24,034 bases of DNA. Origin: a virus. The position numbers and the translations under genes are program-made. The notes under the pieces are model-generated. The model saw nothing but the letters and a program-made list of their open reading frames with translations, was not told where the DNA came from and made no database searches. This document shows, piece by piece, positions 512-7,983 of this stretch (positions within the stretch are counted from its first letter, which is position 1; each line of letters starts with the position of its first letter). The stretch lies in the UHGV virus genome UHGV-0029496, one strand, 5' to 3'.

Positions 512-3139
512 TTAGCTAAAACCGTTGCTGAATCCGCCGGAGAAACCGCGACCGAAGGGTGCGACACCGTCGTATTTATAGAAATCCGCTTCATAGTTAA
601 CCCCGGTAATCTTAACTGTTCTGTCATCTCCGGGGTCAACTGTAGAAACAAGAATCATCTGAGCATTATGCCTTGCTTCGTTGCCGAATGAAAACTCAGT
701 TTTTAGTGCGCTATTCCCTGTGTAAATTGCCTCCTGCGGCGCGGATAACATAACCACTTCACGGTCATGACTTCCAGGAACTACAGCGACGCTCTGGACA
801 CCACCGTCGCGCTTCTTAAGGATTAAAGAGTGGTCGTCACCCGGAGTAAATGTGACAGGCTGTGATAAAGTCAGAGTAAGACCATTAACGGCAACAACAT
901 AGCCGTCTTGAGGCGCTACGCGCGAACCTTTAACGACGCTTATTGCGCGACCCGGCAGCACAAAAACTCCCTCTTCTGTCGCTGTAAAGGACACCGTGAC
1001 TTTCTTCAACAGGTTCTTCTGGTACCGACGGTACGCCGCCCAGTACGCCTGACGATAATTACGTATACCTTTGGAGTCATACGTTTCAGTATTAACACCA
1101 CCTTCGGCTGGGATGCTGATGGTCTCTTTTACGTTAGTATCTGGGTCGATGTAGGAGAACTTAAGACTATCATATACCTGAGCGTCGTTGAACGTTCGGG
1201 TCCACTTCTCCGTAGCTGTAGTCTTGCTGCGATGTGTGAACACCATCTCCGGGCCAATCCGCGGGCGCTCGAAATCCAGTAATATGTCCTGCCCTTTACG
1301 ATATGGTATGCAGAAAATAGCGTCGGCTATTGTGCTGATTATGTCCTGCATAGTCATTTTATAATCGTCAAAAGTGTAGCAGAATTGACCGGCCTCTGCG
1401 TTACCGAAATAGTTTTCTATCTCGTTCTGAGTCGCTAACAACTTGTCCATATTGGATGTGGTTAGGTTGAGATTACCTACTACCGGGTCGCGGGCAAGAC
1501 GGATTAAGGACTGAATCGCCTGAGTATTTGGTGTCATAACCGTGTCGAATACGCCGTTGCCGAGGTATTTGTACACCATCTCTGTGGCAACCATACGTAG
1601 TTGCGGCTGCTTAATCTCCGCGGCCCGCGGCGTCTGCTTACGTGCGGAGTGCACGGTAGTACGGTTGCCGTAATGCGGTGTAGTGTCGCGTACCTGCCCA
1701 TAAAGATTGATGTAGGAAACCTCATCTACCACGGTTCCCTCAAAACTGAGGTCCAGGTCAGTGACGCGGCGGGCACGTACCCTAACTTTCGACCGCATGG
1801 GCAAGTCGGCGTAAATAGTAACACCTGTGTAATCCGCAGAACGACCTGATATAACGGCCTGTTTTGAGTAAACATCACCGTACGGCACGCCAGTTCCATC
1901 AAGGAGTTGATACTGAAGCTCGACAGTTACCGACGTGCGCAATTTACTGCCGTTGTCTTTATACATACCATTCGCGGCCGCGATGTTGGCTACTACACGT
2001 TCAACTTCCAGGCGGTTTAAGGTAGTCCAGTCCGTTAACGACTTATCGTAAGTGTTCGACGGTGAAATCCATGCTTCGGTACCTTGCGTTAAAGGAGTGA
2101 ATCCCGATGGCAATTTTTGCCATGCTGACAACATCCCTCCGACGGCTACTCTTACCTCAAAGTCATCTACGTATGTAACAGTATAGCTACCACTGACGTT
2201 AGCCACGTCTTTTACCAGAATAAGGTTAAAAACAGCTATGTCCCCAACTGATAAAATCTCAGAGAAAGCAGAGTCGCCAGTGTTATCGCGGACGACACCA
2301 GTTGCCCCCTGCAATGAAATCTCACCGGTATCACTGGGATTAACCCTGATGTCGTTCTGCGCTTTAAGAACAGCCCCATCTACCTCGTTCGAGGTAATAG
2401 TTATGTATAGATTTTGATTAATAGGATCCCCTACCAGAAGCTGAGGCGTATTTGTATTGTTAGGGGATGTAAATGGGGCGTATACCGCTACAGAAGTTCC
2501 TGTAATCTCCTGCACTTTAGTATCGCCGTCTGTGATGTCTTCGGCTTTAATATCAAGATACCCGCGACCGGCGTCATAGTAGCCGTATTCAACTACCACA
2601 CCTGCGTCATTGAAGACCTTATACGTAGTCATGAGGTCATTAGGGATAGTCTGGACCCTGCCGCAAATATCATACGACCGTTCATACGGCCGCGGTTTAT
2701 TGTTTCGGTCAGTCAGGCTGTTGTTGGGAGACTCCGCCTGCTGGTTCGCTAAACTCGTTTTAGGCGTTTTCTGCGACGGAGAAATCAACTTGGTAATAAA
2801 TTTAAGCACACCCAAAGGGTCAAGGAGTTTACCCAGAAAACCACCACCGCCGCCAGCACCCTCGATGATATGGAAAACGTCATCTTCTTTCAGCGCTTCG
2901 AAGTTTTCCGTTACGTCTGTATCATCACCAATCTCGCCGCGGTAAATACGCACAGGTACCCCGTCTGGGATGTTAGCAACGACGTATTCCATCGGAGGTA
3001 CGTTATACCGTTTGCGGTCAAAAGTACCGTCTTCGTTACGGGTGTAATGTAATATCAGCGCCAAAATTCTATCTCCGCATAAGTTTCGCGCAAGTCTTCC
3101 AGTCGGTCTAACCGTACCTGGCGACTTGCTAGCTCGCAA
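512..3139 (-). CDS. Tail tip protein: gpI-like N-terminal domain fused to a large J-like central fibre / host-specificity protein
   Basis: 875-codon ORF. N-terminal VRIYRGEIG...VFHIIEGAGGGGGFLGKLL resembles lambda tail assembly protein I (VIHIVPRVAGAKSGG). Track start is TTG at 3139; alternatives are TTG 3064 (GGAGA SD) or ATG 2992. Position after K-like gene. Confidence 0.6.
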   Translation of the reverse strand: MRASKSPGTVRPTGRLARNLCGDRILALILHYTRNEDGTFDRKRYNVPPMEYVVANIPDGVPVRIYRGEIGDDTDVTENFEALKEDDVFHIIEGAGGGGGFLGKLLDPLGVLKFITKLISPSQKTPKTSLANQQAESPNNSLTDRNNKPRPYERSYDICGRVQTIPNDLMTTYKVFNDAGVVVEYGYYDAGRGYLDIKAEDITDGDTKVQEITGTSVAVYAPFTSPNNTNTPQLLVGDPINQNLYITITSNEVDGAVLKAQNDIRVNPSDTGEISLQGATGVVRDNTGDSAFSEILSVGDIAVFNLILVKDVANVSGSYTVTYVDDFEVRVAVGGMLSAWQKLPSGFTPLTQGTEAWISPSNTYDKSLTDWTTLNRLEVERVVANIAAANGMYKDNGSKLRTSVTVELQYQLLDGTGVPYGDVYSKQAVISGRSADYTGVTIYADLPMRSKVRVRARRVTDLDLSFEGTVVDEVSYINLYGQVRDTTPHYGNRTTVHSARKQTPRAAEIKQPQLRMVATEMVYKYLGNGVFDTVMTPNTQAIQSLIRLARDPVVGNLNLTTSNMDKLLATQNEIENYFGNAEAGQFCYTFDDYKMTMQDIISTIADAIFCIPYRKGQDILLDFERPRIGPEMVFTHRSKTTATEKWTRTFNDAQVYDSLKFSYIDPDTNVKETISIPAEGGVNTETYDSKGIRNYRQAYWAAYRRYQKNLLKKVTVSFTATEEGVFVLPGRAISVVKGSRVAPQDGYVVAVNGLTLTLSQPVTFTPGDDHSLILKKRDGGVQSVAVVPGSHDREVVMLSAPQEAIYTGNSALKTEFSFGNEARHNAQMILVSTVDPGDDRTVKITGVNYEADFYKYDGVAPFGRGFSGGFSNGFS

Positions 3140-3420
3140 TGACTGACCATACCATCATAATATACGCCAGCGTGCCAGATTACACGGTTTCTGTGCCGTG
3201 TTGCCATCAGCACGGCATCGAAGTTTTGCGGAGTTTCTACGCGTACGAGGCCTTTAGTGTCTTTATGGCCTTCTTCGAAGGCGTCGTTAATCTGTGTTGG
3301 TGAAGCGACGTTAAACTCTGGCGTAAAAAGACCAGCGTCGGTACGAACGTTACGCACGTGGTGCCAGCAATTACGACGGCGAAAATCGTACGGTAACCCA
3401 GTATAAGAATTAATGTTCAT
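3055..3420 (-). CDS. Tail assembly protein, NlpC/P60-like (lambda gpK-like)
   Basis: ATG at 3420 overlaps the upstream stop (ATGA). Cys-His motifs NCWHHV, WHAGVYYDG, SHCEL fit an NlpC/P60 peptidase core; lies between L-like and I/J-like genes as in lambda. Confidence 0.55.
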   Translation of the reverse strand: MNINSYTGLPYDFRRRNCWHHVRNVRTDAGLFTPEFNVASPTQINDAFEEGHKDTKGLVRVETPQNFDAVLMATRHRNRVIWHAGVYYDGMVSHCELASRQVRLDRLEDLRETYAEIEFWR

Positions 3421-3932
3421 GTAGACAAAACACCACGTAACAATGGGATTACCGAAGGGGTCATTAGTTCACCGGTGGCTCTTTGGTTCAACATAGGGAC
3501 GCCGACGTCAGCTGTGAATATCCCCTTTTCCTGGTTTATCGACTGCAACTCGTATACAACTGGCCCATCAGCCGGGTAGGTTAAATCTGTGCTGACGAAA
3601 CGGCGGAATATGAACTTAGGTAACACCGTATTGTCCGGCGGTATGCGGTCCATCTCATCGTCTAATTGGTTACCGATGTCAGGTAATGCGAACGACGCCC
3701 GCTGGTCCATGTCGTTATTGTTGGCGGCTCCTTTAGCCTCCATAGGGGTGGCTTCAAACGTAACGACTTCGCCGGTCTCTAACGTCGCCGTCAGGTCGGA
3801 AGTTCCGCGGACAAGCAAATACCGCTTCGAAAGAAGCGGGTGTACTATCTCCAGCGTCGTGTAGTCAATTTCGCCGTCGGGATTTGAGGCCAGCTTACGG
3901 CGATAGGCAGCTTCTACTGATTCCTGGCTCAT
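3417..3932 (-). CDS. Minor tail protein, gpL-like N-terminal domain
   Basis: 171 aa; position between M-like and K-like genes; loose pattern resemblance to lambda gpL N-terminus, but lacks the C-terminal Cys cluster. Confidence 0.4.
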   Translation of the reverse strand: MSQESVEAAYRRKLASNPDGEIDYTTLEIVHPLLSKRYLLVRGTSDLTATLETGEVVTFEATPMEAKGAANNNDMDQRASFALPDIGNQLDDEMDRIPPDNTVLPKFIFRRFVSTDLTYPADGPVVYELQSINQEKGIFTADVGVPMLNQRATGELMTPSVIPLLRGVLST

Positions 3933-3935
3933 AAA

Positions 3936-5306
3936 TTAACCGTCCACATTAAAGTCGATACGAGTGATGTATTTACTACCCCACACGGAATCTGCCTGTG
4001 GAATAATGGCGTAATCATCTACAGCCGGAACGTTCACCATGGAGCCATCTGAATAGGCAATGTCGATACTTGTTGCGCCGTTCATTACTACTTTTGCTGA
4101 TGCCGTCGTGCGCGTTCCTGGTGACAATTCGGTTACTATCGGGGACGAGGCAAAGCCGCGTTTTTCTATTTGCGGATTGAAAACAATAATTCCGCTAATA
4201 CCATCTCCCTGAAATGAGCCGTTTGTTGCAGAGGCGTATAGCATAACCCTGTACTGAGCTGATAACGAAGATAGCCTCGATGCGTCGAAAGATATTGATA
4301 CAGACGCATAACCACCAAGATCCGCAATAGATGCCACTCCACCGAACGATGATTTGATAACTTTGCTATCAATGTCTGCAACAACAGATGCGACGTCAAA
4401 ATTATCCGAGTTTCTTATATATAATCTTAAAAAATCCAAACCATTACCAGCCGCTATGACGCTGAATGTAACATAATCTTCTGCATCTAATTGCATGTTT
4501 TGAGAAAAGTAATGAGACCCGCTGGTTGTAGTAGCGATCACTGAAAATATATCCGATGTAGCTTCTCTATTGACTGTGACGTTTGTTAGTGAAGAAGATG
4601 AAATGTCTCCTGAATTTATATAAAGATTTTCAGAATAATATTCTGGAGGCACCCGTCCGACAGCAACCCCATCGATAAACGTAAGGGGCCATTCATTTAC
4701 GGCGGACTGCACAAGATTACCGTTTCGGTTGATGTAATAAACCTGCGGCCCGTCATACACAATGCGACTATCCAGCGTGAGCGCCAGAAGGTTGATCGGC
4801 GGATAGCCGGCTGGCCCTTCATCGCTCCTGATGCGCGGGAACGTAGTCTCATAGTTCGCGTATACTTTCAGGAAACTACCCAGACAATCCCCGTAACAGC
4901 CATACAAATCTGGCAGATTCTTAGTAAGACATGTGTCTTCCTGAATTGCTGTGCGCTCTGCTGTAGCAGTAAACGTAATGACCCAGTTTTTACCGTCGTC
5001 TGTGCTATCGCTAATGTCGGACGTAATAAGAACCTTGTGGTCTTCGATACCTAAACCGGTATCATGAGGCATGATGAACGAAGATGCCCCGCCGTCTATG
5101 TTATTCAGGAAGCTATAGAAAGCCTGACGGCCTAGTGACGATACGACCAGGGTAACGCTAATAGGTACCGGTTCGAAGTATGTATCACGCCCCTGTCGAG
5201 GCACGCCACCTTGCACTTCTGTACGCCAGATATTACTCCCTCGCGTTTGGGAGTACCCCTTCGACACTATTGGTCGAAGGGACATAGGGAATCTCAAATC
5301 ACTCAT
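3936..5306 (-). CDS. Distal tail protein, gpM-like N-terminal domain with long C-terminal extension
   Basis: 456 aa directly after the tape measure gene; N-terminus has the GYSQ motif seen in lambda gpM (GDGYSQRAP); about 340 extra residues, partly encoded by a visibly AT-rich segment (about 4380-4700). Confidence 0.55.
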   Translation of the reverse strand: MSDLRFPMSLRPIVSKGYSQTRGSNIWRTEVQGGVPRQGRDTYFEPVPISVTLVVSSLGRQAFYSFLNNIDGGASSFIMPHDTGLGIEDHKVLITSDISDSTDDGKNWVITFTATAERTAIQEDTCLTKNLPDLYGCYGDCLGSFLKVYANYETTFPRIRSDEGPAGYPPINLLALTLDSRIVYDGPQVYYINRNGNLVQSAVNEWPLTFIDGVAVGRVPPEYYSENLYINSGDISSSSLTNVTVNREATSDIFSVIATTTSGSHYFSQNMQLDAEDYVTFSVIAAGNGLDFLRLYIRNSDNFDVASVVADIDSKVIKSSFGGVASIADLGGYASVSISFDASRLSSLSAQYRVMLYASATNGSFQGDGISGIIVFNPQIEKRGFASSPIVTELSPGTRTTASAKVVMNGATSIDIAYSDGSMVNVPAVDDYAIIPQADSVWGSKYITRIDFNVDG

Positions 5307-5309
5307 TGG

Positions 5310-7619
5310 TTAATACCCCGGCTGGTTTCGTGTAGCCCGGCGGGACTTGGAGATTGCACTGTTGCTGTCTTGTAACGCCGCCGATACTGTTTCACTGATG
5401 ATAACACGTAACCGCCCTTCGTCGTCACGCTCTGTAACGGCGGAATCAACTCGTCCGGTGGTGTTGTTGACGATTGTCACGCTGTCACCGCCTGACTTGT
5501 TGCCGTTCTCGCCCATAATCTGGCGCATTTGTTCGGCGGTACGGACGCGTGATGCCCCCGCTGGCATAATAACTTCAGGCTTGTTACGTTCGGCGATGGT
5601 GGATAGTTGCCCGGCGGCTAAGTTACCGCCCTGCTCACGAGCCGAACGAATCTTACCAATGTTCGCCAGACCTGCTGCTACCGCTGCCGCGGCAGCTACG
5701 GGGCCGAGTACCCATCCGACAATAGGAATCGCGGACGCAGATTTATAAGCCTCGATGGCGGAGGTGTATGTGGCTATTGTAGCCTGAGCAATAGCAAACG
5801 CTTTATACGCGCTAGACGCTTCACCAAGTGACGACTTAATATTGTCCGCCATCATGCCGAAAGCGTTACCCGTAGCGTTGGCGCGCTTCAAAGCATACTG
5901 GCCGTTTATCGCGTTAACCGCGGCCTGATACTGTTCCTCGTTTATAAGATTTTGTTCCCGGTACCGGTCTGCAACGTCCAGTTTTTGCTGTTCCTGAATC
6001 TCGAGAAGCTCAAGCTCAGCGGCATTCTGGCCCATAATCTGGGCCATGAAGTCTTCACCTTTCTGGTTCTTTTCCTGCCGTTCTTTCTCTCGCTTGGCGA
6101 GTTCTTCCTGGCGTGCGGTGTCCGCCTCCAGCATAATCTGAGTTTTGGCGTTTTCGTACTGCTGCTGGCTTATTGTTCCTGCTCGGTTGAACTCTTCGAG
6201 TTTCGCCAGTTTCTGTTCTTCCGCCGCGGTGATACGAGAAATTTCGTCTCCGGTTGTACGGTCAACCGTAGCTAGGAAATCTTCTGCGGCTTTCTTCTGG
6301 CGTTGTGCTGCCATTTCTTCACGTTTGGTCTGTGCCGCCAGACGTTCCTCGTTCGATTTAGCCTCTCGGTCGGCCTTCTCTTTCTCGGCCTTGTCAATGC
6401 GGGCGATGTCTTGCTGCGCTTCCGCGTCACGAGCGGCATTATACGCTGCAATCTGTTCTTTGGTGACGGCTTCACGTTTAGCGAACGCCTGTTTATCGAG
6501 TTCAGCTTGCGCCCGGATGCGCTCACGGTCACTTAGGATGGCGATTTGCTGGTTCTTAACAATGGCTTCGTTCTGTTCCTGGAATCTCTGCGTGGTTGAG
6601 TTGACGTTACGACCAAGATTCTTTTGAGCCTCCGCTGCCGCGTTTGCTGACTTCTCCGCGTTCTCCAGTGCCGTGGCGTTCTTGTTGGCATTGTCAGTAA
6701 GGCGTATAAGTTCCGGGTTCAACTGTTCCGTGTTACCTAGCCAGTCGGTGAACACATCGGCGATGCGACGGGCGTTCTCCGCGGTCGGCTCTTTGTTAAA
6801 CGCACTCTGCGCCGCTATCATCTCCAGCGCCTGGTCGCGGTTAACCCCGAACTTACTGCTAAGCTCCGCAATGTTCTGCGCCAGCATGTTGACGCCTACG
6901 ATATTACCCTCGTAAGTGCCGCCGAGTTTTTCTAACGTGTCGCCTACATCAACGCCCTTAGATACCAATGCATCATACTGGCTAATCGCCGATGCCGTGG
7001 ATGCTTTCCACGTTTCCCACGATTCTGCGTCCTCGCGAATGGCTTTAGCTGTTTGCTGCGCGATAAGGTCCGCGTTGGCCTTAGCTAGAGCAAGCTGAGT
7101 CTCCGCCGCTTCTCTGCTGATTTGGGTAAGCTGGATAAGGCCGTCTGTCAGTTCAAGAGAACCGGATGCCGTTTGCTGGAAAGTATCTTTTAACTGCTTC
7201 TGCGCAGCTTCGAGGTCTTTTGAACTGCCTTCTGCTTCGGTTAGCGATTTATACAGGACACCGCCAATTGCTGACGCAAGAGCAATTACAGCCCCAAGCA
7301 CCGCACCACCGGGGCCGAAAGCACCAGCAAGTTGGGAACCTTGCTGCCCTATCGCAACGAATGCAGACGTACCGGATTGCAACTGGACTACCATGTCCTG
7401 CACCTGGTAACCAACCTGCTCGGCGGCATTGCGGAACTTGGCAAAACCGTCGAACACGGCTTTAGACGTAGCGGAATTTACTTTATTAACATCCGGCGTT
7501 AGTTTGTTTACAGATGTGTCCGCCCGGTCTGCGGATGCCGCCATAGCGTCAAGCTGTTTAGCAGCTGCATCAGCGCCTTCTGTTTTTACTCTGGCAATTA
7601 GGGAAGCCGTATCAGCCAT
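5310..7619 (-). CDS. Tail tape measure protein
   Basis: Long Ala/Gln/Glu-rich alpha-helical ORF downstream of the G/T chaperone pair, with Gly-rich hydrophobic segments. Track start is TTG at 7634; first ATG is at 7619 (MADTASLIARVK...). Confidence 0.8.
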   Translation of the reverse strand: MADTASLIARVKTEGADAAAKQLDAMAASADRADTSVNKLTPDVNKVNSATSKAVFDGFAKFRNAAEQVGYQVQDMVVQLQSGTSAFVAIGQQGSQLAGAFGPGGAVLGAVIALASAIGGVLYKSLTEAEGSSKDLEAAQKQLKDTFQQTASGSLELTDGLIQLTQISREAAETQLALAKANADLIAQQTAKAIREDAESWETWKASTASAISQYDALVSKGVDVGDTLEKLGGTYEGNIVGVNMLAQNIAELSSKFGVNRDQALEMIAAQSAFNKEPTAENARRIADVFTDWLGNTEQLNPELIRLTDNANKNATALENAEKSANAAAEAQKNLGRNVNSTTQRFQEQNEAIVKNQQIAILSDRERIRAQAELDKQAFAKREAVTKEQIAAYNAARDAEAQQDIARIDKAEKEKADREAKSNEERLAAQTKREEMAAQRQKKAAEDFLATVDRTTGDEISRITAAEEQKLAKLEEFNRAGTISQQQYENAKTQIMLEADTARQEELAKREKERQEKNQKGEDFMAQIMGQNAAELELLEIQEQQKLDVADRYREQNLINEEQYQAAVNAINGQYALKRANATGNAFGMMADNIKSSLGEASSAYKAFAIAQATIATYTSAIEAYKSASAIPIVGWVLGPVAAAAAVAAGLANIGKIRSAREQGGNLAAGQLSTIAERNKPEVIMPAGASRVRTAEQMRQIMGENGNKSGGDSVTIVNNTTGRVDSAVTERDDEGRLRVIISETVSAALQDSNSAISKSRRATRNQPGY

Positions 7620-7983
7620 CTTCTCTGCCCTCAAATATTCCGTCTAAGCCCATGATAACCTCGGCTTCGAACAAACTTATGCCGTAACCGGCGACATCAC
7701 GAAACGCTACCAAATCTTGCCATTTGAGCGCATCGCGCGGGATTATAACGATAGTATCATCTGTTTCGCGCTGTAGGAATTTAATGGCACGGTATTTCTC
7801 GAACACGTCGATAAGAGAAACGGGGCATTCTGGCCCCGTCGCTTCTTTCATCTGCGGTTCTTTAATCACGCCCATTGCAATCAAAGCCGCCTGGTGCCCT
7901 GCCGCGATGTCGTCGAATTGCTTACGTTTGTGGCGGTCGACAAAGCACCATTGCGCAAACTCATACAGCGCTTTTACTTTTCC
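7612..7983 (-). CDS. Tail assembly chaperone -1 frameshift extension (gpT-like), expressed as a G-T fusion
   Basis: The -1 frame relative to the G ORF is open from 7998 to the stop at 7612-7614 and overlaps the last G codons; slip candidate G-GAA-AAG at 7977-7983 (minus strand) just before the G stop. Confidence 0.45.
   Translation of the reverse strand, partial: GKVKALYEFAQWCFVDRHKRKQFDDIAAGHQAALIAMGVIKEPQMKEATGPECPVSLIDVFEKYRAIKFLQRETDDTIVIIPRDALKWQDLVAFRDVAGYGISLFEAEVIMGLDGIFEGREDG

Follow-up and report, generated by a model that had tools for sequence, protein, structure and literature searches.

A Kagunavirus tail-tip hub gene in which an N-terminal module equivalent to lambda gpI, and probably homologous to it, is fused to a gpJ-family body

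In phage lambda, three copies of gpI lie in the lumen of the tail tip, where helices H1 and H2 and a plug (residues 159-175) block the tube and support the C-terminal coiled coil of the tape measure protein, and where the C-terminal strands of gpI augment the sheets of gpJ; the plug opens upon LamB binding, and the gpI N-domain (residues 1-100) has never been resolved (PMC11101478, PMC10721106). gpL, gpI and gpJ are viewed as one hub subunit, which in other phages is a single chain (PMC10721106, PMC13243795). Fusions of tail assembly proteins I and J (TAPI and TAPJ), encoded beside NlpC-type K proteins lacking a JAB domain, were reported in 2006 by Iyer, Burroughs and Aravind, who also put forward the idea that TAPI is processed by K-type peptidases at the Gly that ends its ubiquitin-like (Ubl) domain (PMC1779556). 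More recently, gp14 of Shigella phage Sf11 (PDB 9OCC chain E, baseplate hub protein 2), present in three copies per virion, was modelled over residues 81-827 (PMC12724387). Here, we describe a homologue of Sf11 gp14 encoded in UHGV virus genome UHGV-0029496, a stretch of 24,034 nucleotides referred to below as the window; positions are those of the window and all features described lie on its minus strand. The gene, at 512..3064, is a complete coding sequence for a tail-tip hub protein of 850 aa (BHUB2, or gpJ-like, with an N-terminal gpI-like module), and relatives annotate the same start. Thus, the fused layout has been on record since 2006 and a homologue has already been solved; what is new is minor, namely that the hubs of Guernseyvirinae and of the Sf11 type carry a gpI-like module too diverged for Pfam, and that the gene has a conserved TTG start.

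The window belongs to Kagunavirus (Guernseyvirinae). By megablast, it is 95-97% identical to the Escherichia phages AV104, hz69 and others, and 472 phage records match the region, chiefly Salmonella Jerseyvirus and Escherichia Kagunavirus; from these sequence matches, the phage carrying the hub gene is assigned to Kagunavirus, i.e. the Jersey-like phages of E. coli. Counted from the first TTG, the open reading frame (ORF) spans 512..3139 and 875 aa, and it ends with a TAA at 512-514. The original prediction had described this frame correctly: its translation holds VRIYRGEIG, VFHIIEGAGGGGGFLGKLL and the C-terminal GRGFSGGFSNGFS, and it runs without a stop from the N-terminal module into the large body. 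Even at 850 aa, the ORF is far longer than chance would produce.

We asked whether the fusion could be an artefact, I-like and J-like genes being truly split by a stop or frameshift that was lost to sequencing error. PHROG 31307 (276 positions) spans only the N-terminal 270 residues, which would fit two separate genes and which implies that some database entries are short; these short entries are, however, fragments (one is labelled 'Fragment', others are partial proteins from short contigs). The intact gene of ~850 aa is, on the other hand, widespread. The protein clusters listed at 85-100% identity number 120, nearly all of them called at 846-851 aa and five, with the equivalent of ATG 2992 taken as start, at 826 aa; tblastn with the N-terminal 148 aa returns 517 phage records, 498 of which have at least 80% query coverage; and the gene is uninterrupted in 7/7 relatives inspected. 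In addition, the solved Sf11 gp14 is a single chain of 828 aa. The comparative data on relatives already refute a fusion created by sequencing error, which we reject and to which we assign a probability close to nil.

The body of the protein is firmly placed by its sequence as a TipJ/gpJ-family hub. Residues 353-830 (575..2008) match NCBIfam NF040662, the TipJ-family host specificity factor, with 373.9 bits (cut-off 140) and E 1e-111 over profile positions 4-477 of 477. PHROG 469 (tail protein) spans the whole length and PHROG 31 ('central tail fiber J') spans 592-856. When the PDB is searched with phmmer, the best match is Sf11 gp14 (9OCC_E, E 3e-21), followed by lambda gpJ (E 1e-5). The full-length AlphaFold2 (AF2) model is poor, with a mean predicted local distance difference test (pLDDT) score of 53; Foldseek with this low-confidence model returns 9occ_E at 1e-19, lambda gpJ at 6e-14 to 2e-12 and the T1 tail tip at 2.5e-11, with a template-modelling score of ~0.2. 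The hub domains match residues 311-533 of lambda gpJ. Unlike lambda gpJ, which is 1132 aa long, the protein described here continues for only ~20 residues beyond its alignable part, which suggests that a long central fibre or LamB-type receptor-binding domain is absent; receptor recognition in this group of phages has been attributed to the tailspikes. The C-terminus itself is a Gly/Phe/Ser tail, FGRGFSGGFSNGFS (residues 837-850; 515..556), conserved in four Kagunavirus clusters of 85-90% identity and found also in Jersey, Smarc3 and two metagenomic relatives (P0257 and P0259), but absent in K1G, which ends at GVAP, and in PM-CJR and Sasha.

The N-terminal module begins with a predicted Ubl beta-grasp domain (residues 1-68; 2861..3064), the putative equivalent of the gpI N-domain. 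The N-terminal ubiquitin-like beta-grasp that characterises the gpI/TAPI family is therefore present here as a predicted fold. Its last strand, VFHIIE, leads directly into a Gly-rich hinge, GAGGGGG (residues 69-75; 2840..2860). E68, G71 and G73 are invariant in the alignment, and the GG is kept in PM-CJR and Sasha as well. Together (EGAGGGGG), these residues provide the conserved Gly ending the beta-grasp and the Gly-rich linker after it that are described for TAPI (PMC1779556); the counterpart in lambda gpI reads ...AGAKSGG. Next comes an amphipathic helix, FLGKLLDPLGVLKFITKLIS (residues 76-95; 2780..2839), predicted by AF2 as helices 77-80 and 83-93; it is the positional equivalent of gpI H1/H2, and hhalign pairs it with MVLGGVAQMLAP of gpI. 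Three relatives (P0255, P0264 and P0265) have a fully hydrophobic, transmembrane-like helix after the Gly motif, e.g. AALIGWAIAAVVAVAAVTVLAA, which is nearer to lambda gpI H1/H2; the character of this helix varies inside one family. The helix is followed by a conserved extended segment, PSQKTPKT...SPNNSLTDRNNKPRPYERSYDICG (residues 96-135; 2660..2779), which may correspond to the plug and first insertion strands of gpI. Conservation after the helix is strong (SPNNSLTDRNNKPRPYERxYDICG), and N107, S112, N114, R120, N122, R125, P126, R129, D132 and G135 do not vary in either of the two multiple alignments. As in the gpI family, the module is located between a K-type peptidase gene and a J-type body.

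Whether this module is homologous to gpI was addressed by profile-profile comparison. Retrieval of relatives was narrow on both sides and limited the depth of the alignments: similarity searches with the N-terminal 172 aa gave 13 short fragments, those with the full-length protein gave only relatives of at least 85% identity, and lambda I as query gave only relatives of at least ~70% identity. A locus search with a lambda-I alignment gave 80 near-identical lambda copies. With such low-diversity alignments, hhalign returned two local matches that were already colinear with gpI. Diversified alignments were then compared, the query consisting of 17 N-termini, including Gorganvirus, Sashavirus and metagenomic relatives, and the target of 13 gpI sequences from lambda, phi80, T1-like, SSU5, Pseudomonas, Vibrio, Burkholderia, Aeromonas, Edwardsiella and Yersinia phages. 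Between these, hhalign reports a match with a probability of 71%, P 3.7e-5 and a score of 38.9 over 104 colinear columns, aligning query residues 21-128 to lambda I residues 49-193 at ~15% identity. Reversed profiles score 12-13, 60 column shuffles at most 19.5 and 60 block shuffles at most 26.5. With both profiles divided at the Gly motif, the two Ubl halves match each other at P 1.4e-4, compared with P 0.45-0.87 for crossed halves; for the Ubl and the C-terminal half alike, 0/80 shuffles reach the real score.

A number of observations weigh against homology with gpI. The diversified alignments are small (Neff ~3), and the hhalign probability of 71% obtained with them is not conclusive; with the low-diversity alignments the probability was only 0.6-2.3%, which is not significant. 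The match of the C-terminal halves is weak (P 0.008, score 21, probability 4.9%) and AF2 is unconfident for residues 70-146, which leaves the equivalence to the gpI plug a candidate one. The helix after the linker is a single amphipathic one, not transmembrane-like as in gpI. Pfam PF06805, carried by all lambda-I relatives retrieved, gives by contrast no match at E<=10 to the N-terminal 238 aa, to the whole protein or to five relatives, and NCBIfam does not find a gpI domain in the hub protein; indeed, a gpI signature was looked for by Pfam, NCBIfam, PHROG and PDB sequence searches and nothing was found. When 1.84 billion proteins were searched with a HMMER profile built on residues 1-96, 13 matched, with no free-standing gpI among them: 11 are members of the same N-terminal family and 2 are repeat proteins. 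Finally, lambda I is not in the top 50 of a Foldseek search against BFVD. Regarding the two repeat proteins (P0262, 458 aa, and P0263, 7658 aa), seven stretches in each match the Ubl profile, with E 6e-10 and 5e-9; P0262 is built of tandem repeats of ~55 residues that contain '...KIYRNPIGKD...', and the matches of both are probably spurious.

These negative results raise the question of whether the N-terminal domain might instead be a beta-grasp appendage of a generic kind with no kinship to gpI, perhaps serving the K-like protein or the tailspikes as an adaptor, and its likeness to gpI convergent. Each of the elements concerned, a small beta-grasp, a Gly linker and a hydrophobic stretch, is common, HMMER finds the family narrow, Pfam and NCBIfam have no match, BFVD Foldseek does not return lambda I, and the hhalign identity is only ~15%. 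What stands against convergence is that the colinear match covers three successive elements and that each half matches only its cognate half, above all shuffles; that both proteins share a genomic position, from a K-like gene to a J-like body; that the N-domain is invisible in the solved tails of both systems; and that the TAPI-TAPJ fusion is already a published architecture. We regard the generic add-on as unlikely, and homology with gpI as the likely alternative: judged from the profile comparisons, the module would be a very diverged gpI homologue. It is certainly the architectural and positional equivalent of gpI. In other words, the module would act as gpI does and probably shares its ancestry, although its strict membership in the Pfam gpI family is not demonstrable. 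The claim of a gpI-like domain fused to a J-like tip is hence upheld as far as the beta-grasp prediction, the order of elements and the profile-profile match are concerned, but finds no backing in PF06805, NCBIfam or an HMMER link; formally, the refuting outcome named in the original prediction did occur with standard profile tools, which detect no I-like domain, whereas hhalign with diversified alignments does match gpI.

The relation to each of the known systems can be summarised as follows. Like lambda gpI, the module has a Ubl beta-grasp, a conserved Gly with a Gly-rich linker, a hydrophobic or amphipathic helix and a conserved extended segment, in this order; it is encoded after K and before the J body, the N-domain is unseen in the assembled tails of lambda and Sf11, and it shows remote profile-profile similarity. 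Unlike gpI, it is not encoded by a separate gene, it goes undetected by Pfam and it shares only ~15% identity. It also has one short amphipathic helix where gpI (223 residues) has two long transmembrane-like helices, and it is this replacement that brings the module down to ~130 residues. The fusions reported in 2006 have the exact architecture and neighbourhood seen here, a Ubl-bearing TAPI joined to J and preceded by an NlpC/P60-only TAPK, and a JAB-less K-like neighbour is the published pattern of the fused variant (PMC1779556); those examples were, however, prophage genes found by PSI-BLAST-type searches, whereas the present family is below Pfam detection.

Similarity to Sf11 gp14 extends over both parts of the protein: homology is seen in the C-terminal body (E 3e-21) and also in the N-terminal module, where query residues 30-197 align with Sf11 32-189. 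It also extends to the tip as a whole: the genes for tape measure protein, distal tail protein (DTP), DUF1833 BHUB1, small peptidase, BHUB2 and tailspike follow one another in the order known from Sf11/Chi-type tips, and the DTP is homologous to Sf11 gp17 (E 8e-75), which indicates a tip entirely of the Sf11/Chi type. The two hubs differ in that identity is low and in that Sf11 gp14 has no Gly/Phe/Ser tail, its chain ending 5 residues past the last aligned position. The Sf11 model starts, at residue 81, at a point aligned a few residues past the Gly hinge, so that the helix and the conserved segment are ordered and the Ubl domain is not seen. The terms 'gpI' and 'ubiquitin' are absent from the Sf11 paper, in which residues 1-80 and a relation to gpI are undiscussed (PMC12724387). 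As far as description allows a comparison, T5 pb3 likewise unites hub and plug in one polypeptide, but the T5 plug is inserted within HDII-ins and is not an N-terminal module, and no Ubl domain has been reported in T5.

Taking these comparisons together, we propose that the gene at 512-3064 encodes the trimeric baseplate hub protein 2 of a Kagunavirus, an explanation that as a whole we consider probable. The hub subunit that in lambda is split over gpL, gpI and gpJ would here have its gpI and gpJ parts in one polypeptide, arranged as Ubl domain (1-68), Gly hinge (69-75), amphipathic helix (76-95), extended segment (96-135) and then gpJ/TipJ hub domains to the C-terminus. Judged from the analogous lambda gpI and the solved homologue Sf11 gp14, residues from ~81 onward would lie inside the tip cone, and on the most economical reading residues ~76-135 would do the job of the C-terminal part of gpI while covalently attached to the hub. 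The Ubl domain would most likely act during assembly, as a solubility or docking handle, and would afterwards be cut off at the Gly hinge or else stay on in a disordered state. The plug role and, for the Ubl domain, the assembly role are both putative.

A more specific possibility is that the Ubl domain is a removable pro-domain, cut during tail assembly at the invariant Gly hinge (~69-75) by the K-like protein encoded upstream; we hold this to be speculative and rather doubtful. If true, the adjacent JAB-less NlpC/P60 (papain-fold) K-like protein would be an assembly protease, not a cell-wall hydrolase, and hub and K-like protein would form a Ubl-processing system of minimal size encoded by a phage. 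Such cleavage would account, too, for the failure to see the N-domain in either Sf11 gp14 or lambda gpI and for the absence of K-type proteins from virions. gpK has not been detected in lambda virions (PMC10721106), and the mass-spectrometry table of Sf11 virions has no entry for gp15 (PMC12724387); gene order suggests that gp15 is the K-like gene of Sf11. Mass spectrometry data on lambda virions contain one gpI peptide, given without its position.

We next consider the start of the gene. Three candidates had been put forward in the original prediction, TTG 3139, TTG 3064 and ATG 2992, and all three are as described there. The ambiguity between them did not persist: conservation points to TTG 3064, so that the feature is 512-3064 and not 512-3139, with a deduced product of 850 aa. 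The TTG at 3062..3064 is conserved in Snoke, AV104, Jersey, K1G and Smarc3, and it is preceded, with an 8-nt spacer, by the Shine-Dalgarno sequence GGAG at 3073..3076, within GGAGAT. The latter is present in 5/6 Guernseyvirinae-type sequences compared, Smarc3 having AGAGGAT at the same position. Gorganvirus PM-CJR and Sasha (Sashavirus) have a GTG start, likewise preceded by GGAG. Curated annotations and most gene callers already use the TTG 3064 start.

Translation from TTG 3139 (875 aa), mimicking the lambda K/I overlap of ~100 nt, or from ATG 2992 (826 aa) is very improbable. The TTG at 3137..3139 is the mechanical ORF start and lies inside the K-like gene, so that initiation there would create an 85-nt overlap with this 121-aa gene ending at 3055; the K/I overlap of lambda is 103 nt. 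However, an in-frame TGA is found two codons upstream of the conserved TTG in Jersey and K1G (GGAGATTGAATTTTG) and in Smarc3 (AGAGGATTGAATTTTG), with more stops beyond, which makes an upstream start impossible in these phages. The internal ATG at 2990..2992 was picked by a few gene callers. Its Met25 is Ile in Jersey, and the residues upstream of it are conserved protein: residues 2-24 (ALILHYTRNEDGTF...) are conserved at the protein level in relatives of 47-68% identity, the N-terminal MAL/MAI...HYTRN being kept down to 47%, and they form strands 1-2 of the beta-grasp predicted by AF2. Neither position has a Shine-Dalgarno sequence, and we rejected both, TTG 3139 on this ground and on the stops in relatives, ATG 2992 on this ground, the non-conserved Met25 and the conserved protein upstream.

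The accepted start overlaps the stop of the K-like gene (TGA 3055-3057) by 10 nt, TTGGCGCTGA (3055..3064), and the overlap is equal in Snoke, AV104, Jersey, K1G and Smarc3. The hub start is non-ATG throughout, TTG in Kagunavirus, Jerseyvirus and Smarc3 and GTG in Gorganvirus and Sashavirus. That such a start is kept from genus to genus, together with the overlap with the upstream stop, suggests that initiation is coupled and deliberately weak, i.e. that translation of the hub gene is coupled to that of the K-like gene. A weak TTG overlapping the K-like stop would fit coupled, low-level expression of a protein needed in three copies per virion.

As regards annotation, hundreds of Guernseyvirinae genomes label the hub gene 'tail fiber' or 'hypothetical', and many Guernseyvirinae are candidates for phage therapy or biocontrol of Salmonella and E. 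coli. The gain lies in naming the product a tail-tip hub, with a gpI-equivalent N-terminal module and a conserved TTG start. The locus also adds a compact example to a view now taking shape, in which the hub subunits of siphophages are made of one set of modules distributed over one, two or three polypeptides, and, with a single chain and no JAB domain, it offers a simple system for asking about the role and cleavage of the gpI-type ubiquitin-like domain.

On the minus strand, the gene order is tape measure, distal tail protein, DUF1833 protein, K-like peptidase, hub and tailspike, and an identical order is annotated in Snoke, AV104, Jersey, K1G, Serratia phage Smarc3, Proteus phage PM-CJR (Gorganvirus) and Sasha. 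The K-like gene (3055..3420) encodes an NlpC/P60-type peptidase of 121 aa without a JAB domain. PHROG 329 (E 1.5e-10) is its sole profile match: Pfam (including NLPC_P60), NCBIfam and PDB sequence searches all returned nothing, and a JAB (deubiquitinase-like) domain had no match in Pfam or PHROG. Against lambda K, BLASTP gives only a weak alignment around the catalytic Cys, from NCWHH to TDCYTL; relatives are annotated by others as NlpC/P60, RipA-like, dipeptidyl-peptidase or endopeptidase. From its sequence, then, the K-like protein appears to be a very diverged peptidase of minimal size, devoid of a JAB domain. Separately, a number of E. coli proteins (P0142, P0146, P0147, P0150 and others) carry PF00877 (NlpC/P60) and PF06805 (gpI) in one chain of ~340-390 aa; these could be true K-I fusions, or gene calls reading through the K/I overlap of ~100 nt.

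Upstream of the K-like gene, 3417..3932 encodes a DUF1833 protein of 171 aa (Pfam PF08875, E 2.4e-17; PHROG 396). A PDB sequence search with it gave no match; by synteny, being positioned as Sf11 gp16, it is a putative BHUB1, or gpL-equivalent, hub protein. The DTP gene (3936..5306) encodes 456 aa with a large C-terminal extension; residues 165-454 of the protein match Sf11 gp17 (PDB 9occ_C) with the E value given above, the C-terminal 290 residues being homologous to gp17. The RcGTA head spike fibre is a further, faint match (E 0.004). The DTP at the matching position in Jersey, K1G and Smarc3 is only ~165 aa long, versus 456 aa here, which points to a modular extension varying within the Guernseyvirinae subfamily. 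The tape measure protein is encoded at 5310-7634. At the other end of the cluster, the tailspike gene (1-497) starts with ATG 497, 14 nt past the hub stop codon (MSSGCGDVLSLADLQTAKK...), and is cut by the start of the window. The tailspikes encoded at this position differ greatly among relatives, and include an endosialidase and a G7C-like fibre.

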